From NCBI GenBank assembly GCA_003482855.1, contig DMXO01000005.1, forward strand, positions 227,719-291,718: a DNA stretch of 64,000 nucleotides, given 5' to 3'. Below are positions 9,871 to 51,431 of the stretch, in pieces. Below the pieces are notes generated by a model that did no database searches, was not told the origin of the DNA, and saw only the letters and a list, made by a program, of their open reading frames with translations. Made by a program: the position numbers and the translations under genes. The stretch is from Candidatus Magasanikiibacteriota bacterium (GTDB lineage Bacteria > Patescibacteriota > Patescibacteriia > Magasanikbacterales > UBA922). The first letter of the stretch is position 1; each line of letters begins with the position of its first letter.

Positions 9871-10020
9871 TTACAACATTTTTTGACCCCTGATTATCCT
9901 TACAAGTACTATAATAATAGCTATTATAAGTAAGATGTGAATGAAGCCACCAAGCGTGTAGGATGTGACGAGTCCAAGTAGCCATAAAATTATTAGAATG
10001 ATGGCAATAGTCCATAACAT
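9871..10020 (-). CDS. lmo0937-family small membrane protein (49 aa), unannotated in ORF track
   Basis: MLWTIAIILIILWLLGLVTSYTLGGFIHILLIIAIIIVLVRIIRGQKML. Matches the widespread MLWTI..LWLLG..YTLGG..IH.LL family. Confidence 0.6.
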   Translation of the reverse strand: MLWTIAIILIILWLLGLVTSYTLGGFIHILLIIAIIIVLVRIIRGQKML

Positions 10021-18921: not shown

Positions 18922-20412
18922 TTATTGTGTTTTTAACTTGTTGAATATTCTATAGAGTGTTGTTACCACTTCGTCAAATATAGTTATTGGTTTGCCAACA
19001 AACGCCATGACGAATGCAAGATAAAATATTCCAAGTACATGATATAACGCAGGAGCTGTGATATTGGTGATAAGGAGAGCAATGATACCCCCGAGAAGGC
19101 CAATATAAAAGTCATGATAATCCGAAATAGATCGGATTTTTTTTATGAGTTCATGTATGAGCACAATAACTACCAACAGAAGCGCAAGAGAACCAAACAG
19201 GCCAAGTTCTGCGAGCATTTCGAGGTAGCCCCAATCAAAATGTCGTGTAGTAATTTGAGCATAGGTATATGGATTGATGTATGTGAGCGTAGCTCCCAAA
19301 CCACTACCAATTATAGGATGTGCTTTGATCATCGCAAAGATAGGCGAGAGAAGCACTGTTCGGGTATTGGTGCTGATTTCAGTTTCAGGCAATACCATGC
19401 TTCCTATACGCACACCCGCGATTTCTAAGCCAAGACTTTTGCCCATACTTGATGCTATATTTATCGACATAAATATGAGTATCATCATTGCAATACTCCA
19501 CAGTGATACAATGAACCAACGTCGTAGCAGGTGTTTGTATTTGAGAAATAATAATCCTACGATGAATCCAAGGAGGTATGCGCGTGAAAAATTGAGTGCG
19601 AGGACAATTGTTCCAGAAAAAAACAAAAATCTCCACATGCGATTGTGCTTTTCATTACGCATGAGCAATGCACAAATGATGAGAAGAAGTGGCGGAATGA
19701 GCAAGTGTTCAGGCAATACAATGCGATAAAAGAAATCAGTTACATAGGTTATCTTGCCCATAGCGATATCACGAAACCATGTATAGAAGACCCCGTGAAT
19801 TTCCGCTTGTTTGGTGACAAAAAGTACAAAAGTGAAAAGAGAAAATAGAGCTGAACCTATGAGAAATACAATGATAAGTCGGATAAAATAATGTAGTGTT
19901 TTTTCATCTCTAAATAAATGGAAGGCTGGCAAAAGTAATACAAAAAATACGAAAGGGATAAGATCCTGTATAACACTTGCTGTTGAATGGCCATTGAAAA
20001 TACCTACACCAGACGCAATAATGAGCATTACAGTAAGGGGTAAGAGAACATAATATAGTCTATGGGATATATATATTTTGAATGTATCTGAAGTGGGGTT
20101 ACTGAGCGAATATCCAAGCCACAGAAATGAAAATACAATGAGCAAAACAGTGCGAATAGAGAGTCCAAAAAATTCAAACAAGTGTCCAGATCCACCAAGT
20201 GACAATTCTCCGAGTATGATCATCCATGCATGATTTGGATTTTTAAAAAAAGTAAGCCCCAATACGAAGACAAGGACAAATACTATAATTGCTTGGAGAA
20301 TGGCGTGAGGGGCAATATAGAATGATAGGAGTCTAACGCCCCCAAAAATAAGCAGAAGTAGTAGTGTTTGCCAATTTTTGAAAATTGAATGCATGGACAA
20401 TCGTTCCTCCAT
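18922..20412 (-). CDS. O-antigen ligase/Wzy-like polytopic membrane protein
   Basis: 496 aa, >10 TM helices, periplasmic loop with Wzy_C-like features. Confidence 0.5.
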   Translation of the reverse strand: MEERLSMHSIFKNWQTLLLLLIFGGVRLLSFYIAPHAILQAIIVFVLVFVLGLTFFKNPNHAWMIILGELSLGGSGHLFEFFGLSIRTVLLIVFSFLWLGYSLSNPTSDTFKIYISHRLYYVLLPLTVMLIIASGVGIFNGHSTASVIQDLIPFVFFVLLLPAFHLFRDEKTLHYFIRLIIVFLIGSALFSLFTFVLFVTKQAEIHGVFYTWFRDIAMGKITYVTDFFYRIVLPEHLLIPPLLLIICALLMRNEKHNRMWRFLFFSGTIVLALNFSRAYLLGFIVGLLFLKYKHLLRRWFIVSLWSIAMMILIFMSINIASSMGKSLGLEIAGVRIGSMVLPETEISTNTRTVLLSPIFAMIKAHPIIGSGLGATLTYINPYTYAQITTRHFDWGYLEMLAELGLFGSLALLLVVIVLIHELIKKIRSISDYHDFYIGLLGGIIALLITNITAPALYHVLGIFYLAFVMAFVGKPITIFDEVVTTLYRIFNKLKTQ

Positions 20413-20416
20413 AGTT

Positions 20417-21337
20417 TCAACGTAAATTATAGCCAGAAATATTTTTGTATCCGTTCAAGAATGTTTTGATATCCATTTTCGGTTTTCCTTCGAGTTGTAA
20501 TTCAAACACTTGGATTGAAGAATCTTTGGTACCAATGCGGAGTATATCATGTTCTACAATGACTTTGCTAGGAATAATCTGTTTTTGTGTAGGCTTGATA
20601 TCAAGTAATTTCAAACGTTTGTCTCCCCATAATGTCCAAACACCCGGCCATGGCGTGAATGCGCGGAATTGATTATAGATTTCTTGTGATGTTTTATTCC
20701 AATCAATATGTCCATCATCGCGTGAAAGTTGTTTGCATGTGGTAGCTTTTGAATCATCTTGGGGTACTGGGTTCAGTTTGCCTTCAATATACTGTGGAAC
20801 AGCTTCCTCAAGCCCTTGTAAGCCTAGTACAGCGAGCTTTTTATCCAAGTCAGTATAAGTGTCATCTGGATCAATAGTAAGCAGTTTTTGAAGCAAAATA
20901 GGGCCAGTGTCTAGACCAATATCCATTTTCATAATCGTAACGCCTGTCTCATGTTCGCCATTCAAAAGCGCAGATTGGATAGGGGAGGCACCACGATATT
21001 TAGGTAATAGAGACGTATGGACGTTGATAGTACCATGTTGAGGCGCATTTAAAATGTGGGGTGGAATGAGGAGACCATATTGGGCGACGATAAATAGGTC
21101 GTAGGTTTTAGGTTTTAGGTTATAGGTTTTTAAAGATGACGGTTGGCCAATAGAGAGATTATTTTTTTCTGCAAGTAATTTAACAGGAGATGCTTGGAGT
21201 TCTTGTTTGCGACCTACTGGGCGGTCGGGTTGGGTGATGACAATCTCAATATCAAATAAAGGACTGTCGATGAGTCCTTGCAAAATAGTTGTGGCGAAGT
21301 CGTGGGTGCCGAAGAAAATAATTTTCATAATTTTCAA
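20417..21337 (-). CDS. fmt: methionyl-tRNA formyltransferase
   Basis: 306 aa. HTSLLPKYRGASPIQ motif, N- and C-terminal Fmt domains. Contains a 4x AGGTTTT tandem heptamer (21103-21130) encoding KTYNLKPKTYDLF. Confidence 0.9.
   Translation of the reverse strand: MKIMKIIFFGTHDFATTILQGLIDSPLFDIEIVITQPDRPVGRKQELQASPVKLLAEKNNLSIGQPSSLKTYNLKPKTYDLFIVAQYGLLIPPHILNAPQHGTINVHTSLLPKYRGASPIQSALLNGEHETGVTIMKMDIGLDTGPILLQKLLTIDPDDTYTDLDKKLAVLGLQGLEEAVPQYIEGKLNPVPQDDSKATTCKQLSRDDGHIDWNKTSQEIYNQFRAFTPWPGVWTLWGDKRLKLLDIKPTQKQIIPSKVIVEHDILRIGTKDSSIQVFELQLEGKPKMDIKTFLNGYKNISGYNLR
21103..21130. repeat. tandem heptanucleotide repeat (AGGTTTT)x4 inside fmt coding sequence
   Basis: Units aggtttt, aggtttt, aggttat, aggtttt. 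The reading frame is maintained. Confidence 0.7.
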
Positions 21338-21881: not shown

Positions 21882-22199
21882 TCAAGTAAGTTGTTTGCTG
21901 TTTGTTGATGGTTGTTCGTCGCTCCCAGGCTCGGGCCTAGAGTCCCTTGCTCGCTGACTGCTTTTCCATACAAATAGCTTTCCTGGGTTAGATGGATTTG
22001 ATTCCTGTATTTCCCCAAAAATTTGACGTGCGCGCTGTACACCAATTCGTTTGATAACACCAAGATACATTCCAAATTTTTTGCGTTCACCAAAAGCACT
22101 TGATATGACATCAGCCCAATAATGTGCTTCAGAATGAATATGTTTGTTTCGTGGCTTGTCTAGGGTTTTATCACCCAAGATTTTTGATATACCATCCAT
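21882..22199 (-). CDS. hypothetical protein (C-terminal third overlaps a GC-rich repeat-like segment)
   Basis: 105 aa. The N-terminal 65 aa are plausible. The C-terminal low-complexity tail is encoded by the GC-rich segment 21905-21962, which resembles the dispersed element family. Confidence 0.3.
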   Translation of the reverse strand: MDGISKILGDKTLDKPRNKHIHSEAHYWADVISSAFGERKKFGMYLGVIKRIGVQRARQIFGEIQESNPSNPGKLFVWKSSQRARDSRPEPGSDEQPSTNSKQLT

Positions 22200-25454: not shown

Positions 25455-26126
25455 ATGAATTATGGCAAACTTTATATTGTTGCAACACCCATTGGTAATT
25501 TGGGTGATATTACATTACGCGCTTTGGAAACACTCAAAACTGTGGATATTATTTTGTGTGAAGATACGCGTGTTACGAGTAAATTATTAGCTCATTTTGA
25601 GATTAGCAAATCGCTTGTTAGTTATCATCATCATAGCGATGAAAAGAAAGTTAGTGAAATTAGAGAATTGCTTGAACAAGGGAAAAATATTGCATTGGTG
25701 ACAGATGCGGGTACGCCGGGAATTAGTGATCCGGGAAATCAATTGGTGAAGTTCATAGCCAATAGTTCACAGCCAATAGAAATTATACCTATTCCGGGAG
25801 TAAGTGCAGTAGTTACGGCTCTTAGTATTTCTGGCTTTCCGACAGACAAATTTTTGTTTCTTGGTTTTCCTCCGCATAAAAAAGGACGAAAGACTTTTTT
25901 TGAAAGTATTACTAATGCAGAACATACAGTTGTGTTTTATGAGTCAAGTCATAGAATCAAAAAATGTCTTAGCGAATTAGCAAAAGTTTTGAAACTAGAG
26001 ATGAAGGTATGCATATGTAGAGAATTGACCAAAAAATTTGAAACAGTATATCGTGGTACTGTTGGTGGTATTGGAGACATGCGGGTTTTGGAAAAAGGAG
26101 AATTTGTCATTTTGGTTTCTAATTGA
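25455..26126 (+). CDS. rsmI: 16S rRNA (cytidine1402-2'-O)-methyltransferase RsmI
   Basis: 223 aa. LYIVATPIGNLGDITLRALETL...ILCEDTR tetrapyrrole-methylase fold signature. Confidence 0.85.
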   Translation: MNYGKLYIVATPIGNLGDITLRALETLKTVDIILCEDTRVTSKLLAHFEISKSLVSYHHHSDEKKVSEIRELLEQGKNIALVTDAGTPGISDPGNQLVKFIANSSQPIEIIPIPGVSAVVTALSISGFPTDKFLFLGFPPHKKGRKTFFESITNAEHTVVFYESSHRIKKCLSELAKVLKLEMKVCICRELTKKFETVYRGTVGGIGDMRVLEKGEFVILVSN

Positions 26127-27658
26127 ATTATATGAAAAAAACTTTTTATATCTCAACAGCAATTCCTTATGTTAATGCAAAGCCTCATATAGGTCATGCT
26201 TTGGAGTATGTACAAACAGATGCACTTGCACGTTATCAGCGACTCCTGGGGAAAGATGTTTTCTTTTTGTCAGGCACGGATGAAAATTCTCTCAAAAATG
26301 TGCAAGCTGCCGAAAAAGCTGGTGTGAGTACAAAAAATTTTGTTGATGAACATTATACATTTTTTTATAATTTTAAAGATGCACTCGACATATCATTTGA
26401 TGACTTCATTCGAACTACGGAACAAAGGCATTTTGATGGTGCACAAAAATTGTGGTCTTTATTCAAAAAAGAAGATGTAGAGAAGCGGGCATACAAGGGA
26501 CTGTATTGTGTAGGTTGTGAAGCATTTTACAAAGAAGATGAACTTGTGGATGGCAAATGCCCTGATCACAAGACAGTGCCAGAAGTTGTTGAAGAGGAAA
26601 ATTGGTTTTTTAAACTTTCTCATTATCAAGATGAACTTAAAAAACTTATAGAAAAAGATATCATAAAGATTACACCTGAATTTCGTAAGAATGAATGGCT
26701 TGCTTTTGTTGATCGGGGACTTGAGGATTTTAGCATTTCACGCTCACAAGAGCGTGCACATGGGTGGGGAGTACCAGTACCCAAGGATGAAGGGCAGATT
26801 ATGTATGTGTGGGTAGATGCGCTCTCAAATTATATTACTGCGCTTAATTTCGCAGACGATGGTGAATTGTACAAAAAATATTGGCAAACATGTGAAGATA
26901 GAGTGCATGTCATTGGCAAAGGCATTGGCAAGTTTCATGTTTTGTATTGGCCAGCGATGTTATTGTCAGCAGGTATTCCATTACCGACAGAAGTATTTAT
27001 CCACGGCTATGTGACAGCAGAAGGGGAGAAGATAAGCAAAAGTCTGGGCAATGTGGTAGATCCCTATGAAGTAGTAGAGAAATATGGTACTGACGCTGTA
27101 CGTTATTATTTGCTCGGGGCTATTTCATCTACACAAGATGGTGATTTTTCTGTAGAACGTTTTGAAGAATTTTATACGGCGCATCTCGTGAATGGGGTGG
27201 GGAATTTGACGAGCAGAATTTTGACCATGTTAGAAAAATATAATGAAAGTATAATATCTGTTGTAAACAAAGAGACTTCAGACTTCAGACTTCAGACTTC
27301 AGACTTCTGGAAAAAGATTGAAGAAACACTACAATATTATAATTTTGAAGAATCAATTCATTCAATAAATAATTTTGTTGCGCAACTAGATGGTATTATT
27401 TCTGAACAAAAACCCTGGGAAAAAGCAAAAAATGGTGAAGACATTTCCGGATTGCTGTATCAGCTTGCAGAAGGTTTACGTCATATTGGTTTAGCCCTCT
27501 TGCCAATTATTCCTCAATCCGCAGAAAAGATTTTGAATCAACTTGGTATACAAGTGAGTGATTTGGAAAATTTAGAAATTGAAAGAGAGTGGGGGAGACT
27601 TGAACCTGAAACAAAAGTGAAGAAGGGAGAATTACTTTTTCAAAGATTGAATAAGTAA
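26123..27658 (+). CDS. metG: methionine--tRNA ligase
   Basis: 511 aa. HIGH motif (PHIGH), KMSKS motif (KISKS), anticodon-binding domain. Contains a 5x AGACTTC heptamer array (27273-27307) encoding ETSDFRLQTSDFW. Confidence 0.9.
   Translation: MNYMKKTFYISTAIPYVNAKPHIGHALEYVQTDALARYQRLLGKDVFFLSGTDENSLKNVQAAEKAGVSTKNFVDEHYTFFYNFKDALDISFDDFIRTTEQRHFDGAQKLWSLFKKEDVEKRAYKGLYCVGCEAFYKEDELVDGKCPDHKTVPEVVEEENWFFKLSHYQDELKKLIEKDIIKITPEFRKNEWLAFVDRGLEDFSISRSQERAHGWGVPVPKDEGQIMYVWVDALSNYITALNFADDGELYKKYWQTCEDRVHVIGKGIGKFHVLYWPAMLLSAGIPLPTEVFIHGYVTAEGEKISKSLGNVVDPYEVVEKYGTDAVRYYLLGAISSTQDGDFSVERFEEFYTAHLVNGVGNLTSRILTMLEKYNESIISVVNKETSDFRLQTSDFWKKIEETLQYYNFEESIHSINNFVAQLDGIISEQKPWEKAKNGEDISGLLYQLAEGLRHIGLALLPIIPQSAEKILNQLGIQVSDLENLEIEREWGRLEPETKVKKGELLFQRLNK
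27273..27307. repeat. tandem heptanucleotide repeat (AGACTTC)x5 inside metG
   Basis: Five perfect units, in frame. Confidence 0.75.
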
Positions 27659-27720
27659 TTAGATATTGAGGAATTCAAAATTGTTTAAAAATTTAAAATT
27701 CGAAATTTAAAATTAATCCT

Positions 27721-32104: not shown

Positions 32105-32962
32105 ATGATTATTGATTCACATTGTCATCTACATTTCGATAGTTTCAAGAGCGATCGCGATCAAGTGATCGCTTCTTGTATTGAACATGGTGTAATCATA
32201 AATACCGTGGGTACTCATAGTGGTACAAGTAAACGCGCAGTCGAGTTGGCAGAAAAAAATGAAAATATGTATGCGACGATAGGACTTCATCCCACACATG
32301 TTTTTCCTATGGAAGTACATGGAGATGAATATGATTTCATTTCAAAAGCAGAGACATTTGACGAAGCATATTATGATACGCTTGCTCAATCAGAAAAAGT
32401 TATTGCAGTAGGGGAATGCGGTATAGATTTGTTTCATCTACCTGAAAATAAAAGTACAGAAGAAGTTTTAGAGAAACAAAAAGAAGTATTTTTGAAACAA
32501 GTAGATTTTGCAAACAAATATAATTTACCTCTTGTTATACATGTACGAGACGCGCATGAACAGCTTATACAAATTCTGAAGTCTGAAGTCCGAAGTCCGA
32601 AGTCCGCCGTGGTCCACTGTTACACATCAAACTGGGGAAATGCTGGAAAATATTTAGATATGGGTTTTTATCTAGGATTTACTGGGGTCATTACATTTCC
32701 ACCAAAAAAAACTGACCCTAAATCTCAAGAAGATCTAATAGAAGTTGTAAAAAAATGTCCTTTGAACAGAATGCTTATCGAAACTGACGCGCCTTATCTA
32801 GCACCTCAGGCATATCGTGGGCAACGTTGTGAACCCTGGATGGTAGAAGATGTAATAAAAAAAATAGCTGAGATTAGAGGAAAAACACTAGACGAAATAA
32901 AAAATATACTATATCAAAATACGTTAAACTTATTCACAAGAATGAAATTAAAAGATAGTTGA
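32105..32962 (+). CDS. tatD: TatD family metal-dependent hydrolase (DNase)
   Basis: 285 aa. IDSHCHL, GECGIDL, HVRDAH and ETDAPYL motifs. Contains a (GAAGTCY)x4-5 heptamer array at 32576-32610, the reverse complement of the metG heptamer. Confidence 0.85.
   Translation: MIIDSHCHLHFDSFKSDRDQVIASCIEHGVIINTVGTHSGTSKRAVELAEKNENMYATIGLHPTHVFPMEVHGDEYDFISKAETFDEAYYDTLAQSEKVIAVGECGIDLFHLPENKSTEEVLEKQKEVFLKQVDFANKYNLPLVIHVRDAHEQLIQILKSEVRSPKSAVVHCYTSNWGNAGKYLDMGFYLGFTGVITFPPKKTDPKSQEDLIEVVKKCPLNRMLIETDAPYLAPQAYRGQRCEPWMVEDVIKKIAEIRGKTLDEIKNILYQNTLNLFTRMKLKDS
32576..32610. repeat. tandem heptanucleotide repeat (CTGAAGT/CCGAAGT)x5 inside tatD; reverse complement of the metG repeat unit
   Basis: Units ctgaagt, ctgaagt, ccgaagt, ccgaagt, ccgccgt. 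RC is GACTTCA/GACTTCG, a circular permutation of AGACTTC. Confidence 0.7.
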
Positions 32963-47881: not shown

Positions 47882-48427
47882 ATGGATTCAATTATGCACC
47901 CATATATACCTATAGTACTTGGAACTGCTCGAAAAGGGCGGCAATCTGAGCATGTGGCACAATATATATACAACACACTCAAAAACAATAAAGAGGCTAT
48001 TTTTGAGCTTGTGGATGTGCGTAATTACCTTGTCGAATCTCGAACTATACCTCCGTGGGAAAACAGTAACATAGCCAAACCATGGCGAGACATTGTAGCA
48101 AAATCTTCAGCTTTTATTTTTGTTGTGCCTGAATATAATAGAGGTTATCCAGGAGAATTCAAGATGTTGCTCGATCAGGAGTTTAAAGGATATAACAAGA
48201 AACCTGCACTGATAGTAAGCGTTTCATCCGGTGGCTTCGGTGGTGTACGAATGGCTGAACATTTAATTCCCACATTACGATATATGGGGTTTCATCTTTT
48301 ATCTCAAGATATACAAGTACCAAAGGTAGAAGAGTTTGTGAAAATGAGTATGGAAGAAAAAGATCAAACACTGAAAGAGAAGATAGAGAAAATGGTAGAT
48401 GCCCTTATAGAAAAAAAGAATGACTAA
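47882..48427 (+). CDS. NADPH-dependent FMN reductase family flavoprotein
   Basis: Start reassigned to ATG 47882 (MDSIMHPYIPIVLGTARKGRQSEH). Flavodoxin-like; AFIFVVPEYNRGYPGEFK motif. Confidence 0.7.
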   Translation: MDSIMHPYIPIVLGTARKGRQSEHVAQYIYNTLKNNKEAIFELVDVRNYLVESRTIPPWENSNIAKPWRDIVAKSSAFIFVVPEYNRGYPGEFKMLLDQEFKGYNKKPALIVSVSSGGFGGVRMAEHLIPTLRYMGFHLLSQDIQVPKVEEFVKMSMEEKDQTLKEKIEKMVDALIEKKND

Positions 48428-51400
48428 CTATAATCTCAACGTATCCCAGAAGCAGGCTATCGAATATACCGACGGCCCGCTTTTGATTATTGCTGGGGCT
48501 GGTACAGGCAAGACAACAGTTATTACTCAAAAAATAGCTTATTTAATAGAACAAAAGTTTGCCACGCCTGAGCAAATTTTGGCATTAACGTTTACTGACA
48601 AGGCGGCTGGAGAAATGCAAGGACGTGTAGATGAAATGATGGATATAGGTTATGTAGATTTACAGATTTCTACATTTCATGCATTTTGTCAAAGGCTCCT
48701 TGAGGAATACGGTTTGGAAATTGGATTACCAAATAAATTCAAATTACTAACGCTGACAGATGCATGGCTTCTTATGCGAGAGCATGTTTACGATTTTAAT
48801 TTGGATTATTATAGACCACTCGGCAATCCAAATAAACACATCCATACTCTCCTTGACCATTTTTCAAAATGTAAAGACGAGCTTGTTTCTCCAAAAAGTT
48901 ATATAGAATACGCAGAAGGTTTGGCAATGGATAGTGATAGCGCGCAAATTTTGGAAAAAAATAAAACAGTCGAACTCGCGCATGCGTATCATCAGTATAA
49001 CCAGCTATTACTCGATAAAGAATCTCTTGATTTTGGGGATATTATCTTTTACTGTGTGAAACTCTTACAAGAACGCCCAAATATATTGAAACTCTTACAA
49101 GAACGTTTTAAATATATTCTCATAGATGAATTTCAGGATGTCAATTGGGCACAATATCAACTTATAAGATTATTAGCCAATAAAAATTCACAATTGACAG
49201 TGGTGGGGGATGATGATCAGAGTATTTATGCATTTCGTGGAAGTAATGTGTCTATTATCATGCGATTTAAGGAAGATTATCCAGATGCAAAAGAGATTGT
49301 ATTGACGGAAAATTATCGTTCAAAGCAAGAAATTCTTGATTTTGCATATGCATCCATTCAAAATAATAATCCAGACCGTCTAGAGCAAAAATTGGGTGTA
49401 AATAAGAAACTTCTGAGTGGAGTTCAAGTAGAAAAAATAAAGAGTCAAAAAAATGTCGAGCATCTACATTTTCAGACACTTGATGATGAAGTGGTTGGTG
49501 TAATCAAAAAAATTAGTGAAATCAAAGAACAATCCAGGTTAGTATCTTGGGATGACTTTGCAATCTTAGTTCGGGCAAATAGCCATGTAGAGCCATTTGC
49601 CAATGCGCTCGAATCTCATAATATCCCATATGAATATCTTGCTTCGTCAGGGCTATATCGCCAGCCGATTGTGCTTGATGCTATCGGCTTTCTTAATAGT
49701 ATTGAACATATTCATGACGATAGAGCCATATACCGGCTCTTACGCATGCCATTCTTACAAATGAAAGAGGATGACTTACAAAAATTGACTGCCATGGCGA
49801 AGAAAAAAAGTATAGCATATTATGAGGCACTGAAGCGGTCAAGAGAATTTTATCTTTCGATGGAAGGTACAAATGTGTGTGAAAAACTTATCAGTCTCTT
49901 TCATGAGGGGATGAGACATTCACGATTCGAAAAACCAACAAGCGTACTGTATCAATTTTTGGAAAATAGTGGGTATCTTTCATATCTCACTCATGAAGAA
50001 GGACGGGGAAATAAAGAAATTATTAGACAAATCCATCATCTTAAACAGCTTTTTGATCTTATACGAAATTATGAAGAAGTAATGCCTGGTGCCCATGTAG
50101 CAGGATTTGTAGAGCACTATAACTATATTATAGAATCCGGCGACGGTGGTAAGATGTACCAGCCGACAGATACTCCTAATTCAGTAAATATCTTGACAGT
50201 TCATGCGGCAAAGGGTCTGGAATTTAAATATGTGTTTGTTGTTAATTTGGTAGAAGAAAGATTTCCAAGTAGAAATAGAGGTGGCGATATAGAATTACCT
50301 GATGAATTAGTAAAAGAATTATCAAATGGGGGTCACAATTTCCATTATCAAGAAGAACGCAGACTATTTTATGTGGCAATTACACGTGCAAAAGAAAAAT
50401 TATTTTTGACAAGTGCCGATGATTATGGCGGCTCACGAAAAAAGAAGATCTCACGATTTTTAGACGAGGTTGGATTTGAAACTAACAAACAACGAACAAC
50501 GAACAACGAACAACGGAGCGGACTTCTTAACAAAAAAATATCCTACATTTCTGCCTTGCCGGCAGGCAGACAATATCCAATATCTTCCAAGACAAGGAAT
50601 CAAAGTAACGAATTACCAAAAATTATTCAAGATACCTTCTCCTACTCTCAGATCAATTCGTATGAACGTTGTCCCTATCAGTATAAATTAGCGCATGTAC
50701 TTAAAATTCCAATGAAAGGTAGTGCAAGCTTTAGTTTTGGCAACACGATACACAATACATTGCAAACATTTTATGAACGTATCCAAGAGCTTAATAGAGC
50801 AAAACAGAGCAGTCTGTTTGGTTTGCCTGTAGAAGCACCGCGTATTAAAGGTGATGGAATACAGGTACCAACATTGGAAGAGTTGCTCGATGATTACGAG
50901 AAGGCGTGGATTCCCGATTGGTACAAAAGCAAACAACAGCGAGAGAGTTATTACCAAAAAGGTAAAGAAATTTTGAAAGTATTTTATGCCTCAGAGCAAA
51001 ACTCCTGGTCAATACCAGTAAGCCTTGAAGGTTGGTTCAAAATAAAAGTAGGGGAGTACCTTGTCAATGGACGTATTGATCGTATAGACAAACAATTAGA
51101 CGGCAGTTTAGAAATTATTGACTACAAAACAGGGTCAGCGAAGGAAACTCTCACAAGTGAAGATAAACAGCAACTTATCATATATCAGATTGCTGCCCAA
51201 TCATTATCAGAGTATAACCACATAGGACCTGTAGGTAAACTTACATTTTATTATGTCAATGACAACATAAAAACTTCATTTTTGGGAGAAAACAAGGATA
51301 TAGAAAAATTAAAAGGAAAATTAATTAATGTTATTACTCAAATTCAAGGGGGCGACTTCGCTGCTACGCCAGGTAAACATGTGTGCGCGTACTGTGATTT

Positions 51401-51431
51401 CAAAGAAATTTGTGAATTTAGGCAATTATAA
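48420..51431 (+). CDS. UvrD/PcrA-family helicase fused to a C-terminal PD-(D/E)xK nuclease with Cys cluster (AddA/RecB-like)
   Basis: 1003 aa. Helicase motif I AGAGTGKTTV. C-terminal DGSLEIIDYKTG and CAYCDFKEIC. Contains an (AACGAAC)x3-5 heptamer array at 50484-50518. Confidence 0.8.
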   Translation: MTNYNLNVSQKQAIEYTDGPLLIIAGAGTGKTTVITQKIAYLIEQKFATPEQILALTFTDKAAGEMQGRVDEMMDIGYVDLQISTFHAFCQRLLEEYGLEIGLPNKFKLLTLTDAWLLMREHVYDFNLDYYRPLGNPNKHIHTLLDHFSKCKDELVSPKSYIEYAEGLAMDSDSAQILEKNKTVELAHAYHQYNQLLLDKESLDFGDIIFYCVKLLQERPNILKLLQERFKYILIDEFQDVNWAQYQLIRLLANKNSQLTVVGDDDQSIYAFRGSNVSIIMRFKEDYPDAKEIVLTENYRSKQEILDFAYASIQNNNPDRLEQKLGVNKKLLSGVQVEKIKSQKNVEHLHFQTLDDEVVGVIKKISEIKEQSRLVSWDDFAILVRANSHVEPFANALESHNIPYEYLASSGLYRQPIVLDAIGFLNSIEHIHDDRAIYRLLRMPFLQMKEDDLQKLTAMAKKKSIAYYEALKRSREFYLSMEGTNVCEKLISLFHEGMRHSRFEKPTSVLYQFLENSGYLSYLTHEEGRGNKEIIRQIHHLKQLFDLIRNYEEVMPGAHVAGFVEHYNYIIESGDGGKMYQPTDTPNSVNILTVHAAKGLEFKYVFVVNLVEERFPSRNRGGDIELPDELVKELSNGGHNFHYQEERRLFYVAITRAKEKLFLTSADDYGGSRKKKISRFLDEVGFETNKQRTTNNEQRSGLLNKKISYISALPAGRQYPISSKTRNQSNELPKIIQDTFSYSQINSYERCPYQYKLAHVLKIPMKGSASFSFGNTIHNTLQTFYERIQELNRAKQSSLFGLPVEAPRIKGDGIQVPTLEELLDDYEKAWIPDWYKSKQQRESYYQKGKEILKVFYASEQNSWSIPVSLEGWFKIKVGEYLVNGRIDRIDKQLDGSLEIIDYKTGSAKETLTSEDKQQLIIYQIAAQSLSEYNHIGPVGKLTFYYVNDNIKTSFLGENKDIEKLKGKLINVITQIQGGDFAATPGKHVCAYCDFKEICEFRQL
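50484..50518. repeat. tandem heptanucleotide repeat (AACGAAC)x3 perfect plus 2 degenerate, inside the helicase gene
   Basis: Units aacaaac, aacgaac x3, aacggag. Encodes TNKQRTTNNEQRSG, in frame. Confidence 0.7.

Follow-up and report, generated by a model that had tools for sequence, protein, structure and literature searches.

How does a housekeeping gene come to carry five perfect head-to-tail copies of a 7-nt unit within its reading frame? The question is raised by metG, the gene for methionine--tRNA ligase, on a 64,000-nt stretch of contig DMXO01000005.1 from a Candidatus Magasanikiibacteriota bacterium. The whole of this stretch is called the window, and its numbering is used throughout. 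An earlier note, made from the letters alone, had described the metG array as one of several in-frame heptamer arrays in housekeeping genes, expanded in steps of three units by strand slippage or with the help of an element. In our view the array is probably a heptanucleotide microsatellite of the long simple sequence repeat (LSSR) class, which arose locally via replication slippage and was not inserted from elsewhere. Two features define the locus.

26123 to 27658, plus strand: metG open reading frame (ORF), methionine--tRNA ligase, host of the array (Pfam tRNA-synt_1g, E = 1.9e-100).
27273 to 27307, plus strand: perfect (AGACTTC)x5 array in metG, encoding ETSDFRLQTSDF at residues 381-392 of a 508-residue protein.

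Tandem Repeats Finder (TRF) confirms that the array is exact (period 7, 5.0 copies, 100% matches, score 70). With AGACTTC x5.0 it is an uninterrupted head-to-tail run of a 5-11-nt motif, as LSSRs are. The translation around it reads ...VVNK-ETSDFRLQTSDF-WKK..., and in the protein alignment the segment is flanked by invariant MetG motifs, GNLxxR before and KPW after. Its assignment to the anticodon-binding region holds as well, more precisely to the N-terminal edge of that domain, as the array covers residues 384-395 in ORF numbering and the Pfam Anticodon_1 match begins at residue 392 of the same numbering. In the AlphaFold2 model of MetG, the array residues 381-392 take in the last part of a loop and the opening turns of the helix 383-401, with a predicted local distance difference test score (pLDDT) of ~75 in comparison to a mean of 91. 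The closest MetG homologs come from Candidatus Magasanikbacteria and show 76-77% identity, which points to a Candidate Phyla Radiation (CPR)/Patescibacteria genome without a close relative in the collections. The array DNA has no hairpin or G-quadruplex potential (minimum free energies of the fold -0.9 and -1.9 kcal/mol, weaker than shuffles), and the AGACTTC unit contains no G-runs, let alone the four or more foldable G-tracts of the GGGNATC type. Such structures were thus ruled out as a driver of the arrays.

The window holds four heptamer arrays in total, built from three unrelated units. Besides metG, they are found in tatD, fmt and a helicase-nuclease gene.

32105 to 32962, plus strand: tatD ORF, TatD-family hydrolase, host gene (Pfam TatD_DNase, E = 3e-75).
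32578 to 32606, plus strand: tatD array, GAAGTCT followed by three GAAGTCC, encoding KSEVRSPKS (repeat finding, sequence).
20417 to 21337, minus strand: fmt ORF, methionyl-tRNA formyltransferase, host gene (Pfam Formyl_trans_N, E = 3e-42; Formyl_trans_C, E = 9.9e-25).
21094 to 21128, minus strand: fmt array, five imperfect heptamer units, encoding (K)TYNLKPKTYDL (TRF, sequence comparison).
48420 to 51431, plus strand: ORF of a UvrD-helicase / PD-(D/E)XK nuclease fusion, host gene (Pfam UvrD-helicase, UvrD_C, PDDEXK_1).
50484 to 50515, plus strand: AACGAAC x4.6 array in the linker of the helicase-nuclease fusion, encoding NKQRTTNNEQR (TRF).

The metG unit had been said to recur in reverse complement in tatD. 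One exact copy of GAAGTCT, the reverse complement of AGACTTC, is indeed present there, and the three GAAGTCC units that follow make the tatD unit related to the metG unit, not identical with it. A T in the second unit would create an in-frame stop codon (GAA GTC TGA), which makes the T-to-C change there a necessary one. The tatD array segment aligns gap-free to solved TatD structures. The arrays that had been reported in fmt and in the helicase gene were recovered by TRF. On the coding strand, the fmt array reads AACCTAT AACCTAA AACCTAA AACCTAC GACCTAT (TAGGTTT core x4.1 at 21102-21130), and its orthologs in relatives are arrays of the GAACTAT type. The helicase-nuclease linker is highly variable in length and sequence among orthologs, and these orthologs are uninformative on length change.

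The arrays are specific to period 7. In the window, four lag-7 runs of at least 13 self-matches were found, against a mean of 0.003 per shuffle in 300 three-base-block shuffles, and a DNA motif search for the AGACTTC tract likewise had a shuffle expectation of 0.00. No such run exists at lags 4-6, 8-13 or 15, and the two lag-14 runs are the same heptamer arrays. A perfect-run scan over periods 5-15 likewise returned arrays of at least three units at period 7 only. For comparison, DNA was fetched around MetG orthologs of relatives, giving 75 non-redundant loci with 811 kb in total (L-numbers denote these loci). Period 7 accounted for 34 perfect arrays in the 811 kb, period 14 for 10 and period 21 for 4, with 0-6 arrays at each of the remaining periods from 4 to 21. 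TRF listed 102 period-7 arrays in 875 kb of relatives, three of which reach 7.6-8.4 copies. Their units are diverse and AT-rich, with 25% GC versus a background of 41%. The dominance of period 7 in the relatives makes the window arrays part of a lineage-wide, period-7-specific phenomenon, and the view that in-frame heptamer arrays recur in housekeeping genes is borne out both in the window genome and across its Patescibacteria relatives. An enrichment in coding sequence, which the earlier note had suggested looking for, turned out to be a depletion: 68% of arrays lie inside ORFs, compared to 90% of random 32-nt windows (p = 2e-9). Copy number is alike in coding and non-coding DNA (medians 4.3 and 4.1, p = 0.13). 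This equal size of 4-5 units outside genes means that tract size is not explained by the reading frame, and it speaks against the idea that 4-5 units are the product of frame-preserving expansion.

Ortholog loops, compared at codon level, place the origin of the metG unit in the local sequence. From M[LI]EKY to FW the window has 28 codons, while most relatives have 24 and L125 has 27. The window is thus four codons longer than the common form and one codon longer than L125, and this additional codon lies outside the array. From NKE to FW, window and L125 are of equal length and both end in SDFW, and the last metG unit together with the following TGG (TCA GAC TTC TGG) matches TCT GAC TTC TGG of L125. 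Given the shared SDFW, the last unit is ancestral local sequence, from which the array extends upstream. A simple insertion of ~4 residues, as depicted by a MAFFT protein alignment, was rejected, as the codon-level comparison favours replaced sequence and the MAFFT gaps are misplaced. An ancient array shared at this loop was rejected for most relatives, too. Their majority loop (24 codons, KIPxxxEDIFETxKFW) is non-repetitive, its lag-7 self-match fraction (p7) being ~0.2. Arrays thus seem to have arisen separately in the window, L126 and L127.

The fmt gene, whose orthologs were located by tblastn, shows what happens to an array over longer times. Its QPxSL-to-AQYG region spans 24 codons in all 9 sequences, i.e., the window and all eight orthologs. 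At unit position 3, the window has C throughout (5/5), and L124 and L135 have A throughout (5/5 each); unit identity is 0.83 within the window genome versus 0.69 to the orthologous L124 units. Judged by these patterns, the fmt array is old, evolves in concert at constant length and does not represent a recent expansion. Parallel unit changes at constant length are also seen in L169 versus L178 and in L201 versus L202, and between L170 and L179 the array spreads further into both flanks without any indel.

Steps of exactly 21 nt occur as well. In the MetG loop GYGQ...KYW, two AATTCAA units in L173 stand against five in L178, a difference of precisely 21 nt that accounts for an additional KIKNLKF. 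With five AGAACTY units, the L126 TatD loop has 34 codons, which is seven more than the modal 27 for the stretch from HVRDAH to HC[YF]. The window tatD loop has 28 codons, and the array-bearing TatD loops altogether exceed the mode by +1, +3, +4, +5 and +7 codons. Thus, the proposed expansion by three units is only partly supported: length steps of 21 nt were found among orthologs in this other MetG loop and in L126 TatD, while the arrays of the window itself have net changes of 0 to +4 codons and non-coding arrays are of equal size.

As far as the sequences tell, the same loops are affected repeatedly and independently in different lineages, with unrelated units. Arrays occupy the TatD loop in 5/24 orthologs (window, L126, L149, L151 and L158), and their units differ. 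The MetG loop bears arrays in the window and in L126, and a 14-mer x2.2 in L127. In the loop of an RsmI-like methylase, GAAATTC x4.1 is found in L002, TATCATG x5 in L165, and a 14-mer in the window.

25750 to 25779, plus strand: 14-nt (2 x 7) tandem duplication, AGTTCACAGCCAAT x2.1, in the RsmI-like TP_methylase gene (TRF, ortholog comparison).

The peptides encoded at the same loop are entirely different between lineages.

A number of further observations were made at these loops and genes. Patescibacteria TatD arrays lie at two recurrent positions, at ~nt +197 (e.g., L154, L157, L162 and L193) and at ~nt +474 (the window, L126, L149, L151 and L158), and the TatD genes of L162 and L174 carry two arrays each. 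In L127 (= L122), a GAACTAA x2.9 array at 9989-10008 lengthens the MetG ortholog P0006 at its N-terminus (MKSELRTKN...), so that arrays can also make N-terminal extensions. More distant Patescibacteria (L166 at ~10700; L173; in MetG and neighbouring genes) have in-frame GC-rich palindromes where sister lineages bear heptamer arrays, examples being CCGCCAGCTGGCGG, CTCGCTTCGCGAG and CTGGCAAAGCCAG. Their positions suggest that the same permissive loops collect a second kind of small insert. The RsmI-like TP_methylase of L159 has an in-frame insertion of ~30 residues, CHSRESGNPHCHFDCNGGISFYNRAMDSRFRGNDN, in the loop that bears the 14-mer in the window and the arrays in L002 and L165; by its sequence, this insertion looks like a translated repetitive extragenic palindromic (REP)-like repeat. 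In the helicase-nuclease ORF of the window, ~35 nt past the heptamer array, a GC-rich inverted repeat, TCTGCCTTGCCGGCAGGCAGA, is found at 50550-50570 (DNA fold -5.9 kcal/mol, z = -1.95). Its region codes for ISALPAGRQ and lies inside a stretch, KISYISALPAGRQYP, that most orthologs are without.

The reading that we favour would proceed as follows. During replication, nascent and template strand would misalign at a 7-nt offset and generate the array locally, and this process would yield tracts of ~30-35 nt (4-5 units) throughout the genomes of the lineage. As small CPR genomes are ~90% coding, most tracts would fall in genes. Selection would retain genic tracts only if they are in frame, free of stop codons in all three phases and located in permissive surface loops or linkers. 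Arrays in genes could then change copy number only by three units, i.e., by 21 nt or seven residues, and between such steps the units would be homogenised against one another at constant length. The product would be a lineage-specific peptide with a 7-residue period, which in MetG lies where the first helix of the anticodon-binding domain begins. Changes by one or two units would represent a standing frameshift hazard. The sequence data themselves show that the arrays are specific to period 7, that their units come from local sequence, that orthologs differ by 21-nt steps, that units evolve in concert, that certain loops are hot spots and that coding sequence is depleted of arrays. That slippage is the molecular event, and that the arrays are neutral, is what we infer from these comparisons.

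Several observations weigh against replication slippage as the full account. By itself, it leaves the preference for period 7 unexplained, and likewise the tracts of 4-5 units outside genes and the frequent near-zero net change in length. As to the former, the size of the non-coding arrays implies that something besides selection for frame sets tract length. As to the latter, simple expansion would be expected to lengthen a loop by seven residues relative to orthologs, but the net change is 0 codons in fmt, +1 in tatD and +4 or ~0 in metG, depending on the relative taken for comparison, and the MetG loop of L126 has exactly the consensus 24 codons in spite of a perfect 31-nt CAAGTTA x4.4 array. 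Near-zero changes of this kind need extra deletions or a length-neutral replacement step. In addition, no relative above 77% MetG protein identity was found in the homolog search.

For the birth of the arrays, a serious rival is therefore a single-step templated replacement ('delins'), in which reiterated copies of an adjacent 7-mer take the place of a tract of ~30-35 nt, either by serial slippage (a backward and then a forward slip) or by stuttering fill-in during break or gap repair. Arrays would then replace loop sequence instead of adding to it. This is what the unchanged lengths in fmt, in the L126 MetG loop and in the array part of the window metG loop relative to L125 look like. The spread of the L170/L179 array into both flanks without an indel fits equally, as do TatD loops that are not uniformly seven codons longer and a tract size that is the same in coding and non-coding DNA. 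The clean 21-nt steps of L173 versus L178 and of L126 TatD, on the other hand, need no replacement, and cycles of +3 and -3 units, or later in-frame deletions under selection for loop length, would also result in length neutrality. Direct traces of breaks or repair were not observed. Taken together, we regard templated replacement as possible, although we would not expect it to be the correct account. A further-reaching conjecture, which we consider doubtful, is that Patescibacteria replicate or repair their DNA with an activity that is peculiar to them and works in a 7-nt register. Such an activity would write heptamer tracts of ~30-35 nt, often overwriting sequence in place, and would be a major source, definable in mechanistic terms, of lineage-specific loop insertions and replacements in CPR housekeeping proteins. 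The permissive loops in question also gather 14-mers and GC-rich palindromes.

Insertion by an element, a selected function and an artefact are all poorly supported. A dispersed or externally templated element, be it a miniature mobile repeat or tracts made by a reverse transcriptase from an RNA template, would account for the unit shared by metG and tatD, which is the same or nearly so in opposite orientation. By a rough hand estimate, the chance of a near-match of units among four arrays is roughly 0.1, and as evidence for a common source the shared unit is weak at most. A contig scan found (AGACTTC)x3 at at least 119 loci in many phyla, with several loci in single genomes (9 in Acidobacteria gp6 AA46, 5 in one Vicinamibacterales metagenome-assembled genome), and genome-specific favoured heptamers such as TAACTGA are described elsewhere (PMC4679880). 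At the AGACTTC-bearing loci, however, there are 191 period-7 arrays of many units versus at most 11 arrays for any other period, the arrays there are mostly outside long ORFs, and the genomes with AGACTTC arrays bear 65 other heptamer arrays with many different units. In viral contigs, two control heptamers of the same composition occur at 9 and 2 loci, comparable to 7 for AGACTTC. AGACTTC as a special dispersed unit was thus rejected. Within the window, an element is further contradicted by three unrelated units among four arrays, by units that match local ancestral sequence (metG versus L125; the fmt orthologs), and by the lack of flanking structure or target duplication at the arrays. The metG and tatD sites are the only two unit-like ones in 64 kb even when 2-3 mismatches are allowed, so that one sequence with defined ends at many loci, as in Rickettsia palindromic elements or miniature inverted-repeat transposable elements, is not present in this stretch. 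We consider an element-mediated origin, which the earlier note had left as one of two options, to be very improbable. In L002, the closest sequenced relative, a gene for a 668-residue reverse transcriptase (RVT_1) is located at 19055-21061, ~7.5 kb from metG; no link was found between this gene and the arrays.

Just as improbable is a functional repeat, either a selected 7-residue peptide repeat or a contingency switch that acts by frameshift (phase variation). The arrays do stay in frame and free of stop codons, and the position of the fmt array is conserved across relatives. Yet the units are identical in DNA including synonymous positions, which argues for mutational homogenisation and not for selection on the peptide. 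Arrays of equal size exist in non-coding DNA, arrays are depleted in coding sequence, and the wholly different peptides at one and the same loop do not suggest a conserved role. The hosts are single-copy housekeeping genes with the array in mid-gene (metG, fmt, tatD and the helicase-nuclease), where an OFF state would be lethal or costly, and no shifted alleles were observed. In phase-variable contingency loci, the repeat lies in the promoter or the 5' part of the coding region, and the genes concerned are dispensable ones for surface or virulence factors. Chance or an assembly or sequencing error, for which nothing specific speaks apart from an uncultivated lineage and what is probably a metagenome assembly, can practically be dismissed, given ~0.003 runs expected in shuffles versus 4 observed, arrays of 29-35 nt that fit within a sequencing read and do not disrupt long ORFs, and the occurrence of arrays of this kind in assemblies made independently (NCBI, JGI and ENA).

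Two observations concern the surroundings of metG. The first is a weak AT-rich array in the spacer behind the gene.

27688 to 27714, no strand assigned: AAAATTT x3.9, 80% matches, spacer after metG (TRF).

The second concerns the interval between def and a Memo/LigB-like gene. In the window it contains a 105-residue ORF without a Pfam match (21882-22199, minus strand), while the same interval encodes PriA (612-641 residues) in L002, L123, L124 and L125. In the window genome, priA thus appears to be lost or relocated.

The arrays indicate that heptamer microsatellites of the kind seen in large, free-living bacteria are at work in the ultra-small genomes of the CPR, too. Intergenic DNA is nearly absent there, and the process acts directly on essential proteins: loop segments take on a 7-residue period, lengths shift by 21 nt at a time, and units inside genes evolve in concert. 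Some of the lineage-specific insertions that hamper the alignment of CPR proteins can thus be traced to a concrete kind of mutation, and there is a warning to annotators that heptamer tracts are real and not errors. Loops that were hit independently across lineages also provide natural replicates for studying why slippage favours 7 nt.

The repeat itself is of a kind that is already known. Among systems in which repetitive DNA is tolerated in frame are the Rickettsia palindromic elements, which are dispersed, palindromic mobile sequences of ~100-150 bp that are conserved and inserted in frame in housekeeping genes. They share with the present arrays the location in surface-exposed parts of essential proteins; here, in contrast, we see tandem arrays of 30-35 nt and of local origin. 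The short tandemly repeated repetitive (STRR) sequences of heterocystous cyanobacteria (Calothrix/Nostoc; PMC4692102) are likewise tandem heptanucleotide arrays dispersed over a genome. STRR sequences use few defined units at many, mostly intergenic loci, whereas the units described here change between arrays and stem from the coding sequence at the site; a relative of Magasanikbacteria with three unrelated units among four arrays does not fit the cyanobacterial type. Heptamer arrays are further known as TAACTGA direct repeats from marine Beggiatoaceae, cyanobacteria and Bacteroidetes (PMC4679880) and as the G-quadruplex-forming GGGNATC repeats of Xanthomonas/Nostoc (PMC4692102). Both resemble the present arrays in forming heptamer arrays, of two to six units in Beggiatoaceae or ~four in Xanthomonas/Nostoc, whose generating mechanism is not known. 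They differ in that one unit dominates per genome, close to gene starts or ends and with a proposed regulatory or structural role, in comparison to mid-gene arrays with no G-runs and essentially no self-structure in the window.

The closest match is the LSSR class. In the summaries given in PMC4679880 and PMC4692102, LSSRs are described as repeats of 5-11-nt units in which heptanucleotides dominate (Mrazek, Guo & Shah 2007 PNAS), and prokaryotic LSSRs are reported to be most often heptanucleotide repeats, polymerase slippage being the proposed origin (Mrazek 2007). Head-to-tail 7-nt units beyond chance length, the dominance of period 7, a handful of copies, a relative depletion in coding sequence and slippage as the suggested source are all common to LSSRs and the arrays described here. 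LSSRs were described mainly from large and often GC-rich genomes (Burkholderia, Xanthomonas, cyanobacteria, actinobacteria), where they are mostly intergenic. The present genome, in contrast, is a small CPR genome of 37% GC, two thirds of the arrays are genic and include essential genes, the units are AT-rich, and orthologs differ by 21-nt steps and by concerted evolution. Our literature searches returned nothing that links CPR or Patescibacteria to heptamer repeats. What is new in comparison to the known heptamer systems is the lineage, the predominance of arrays inside essential genes, length differences of 21 nt between orthologs, concerted evolution within genes, and loops that are hit again and again.

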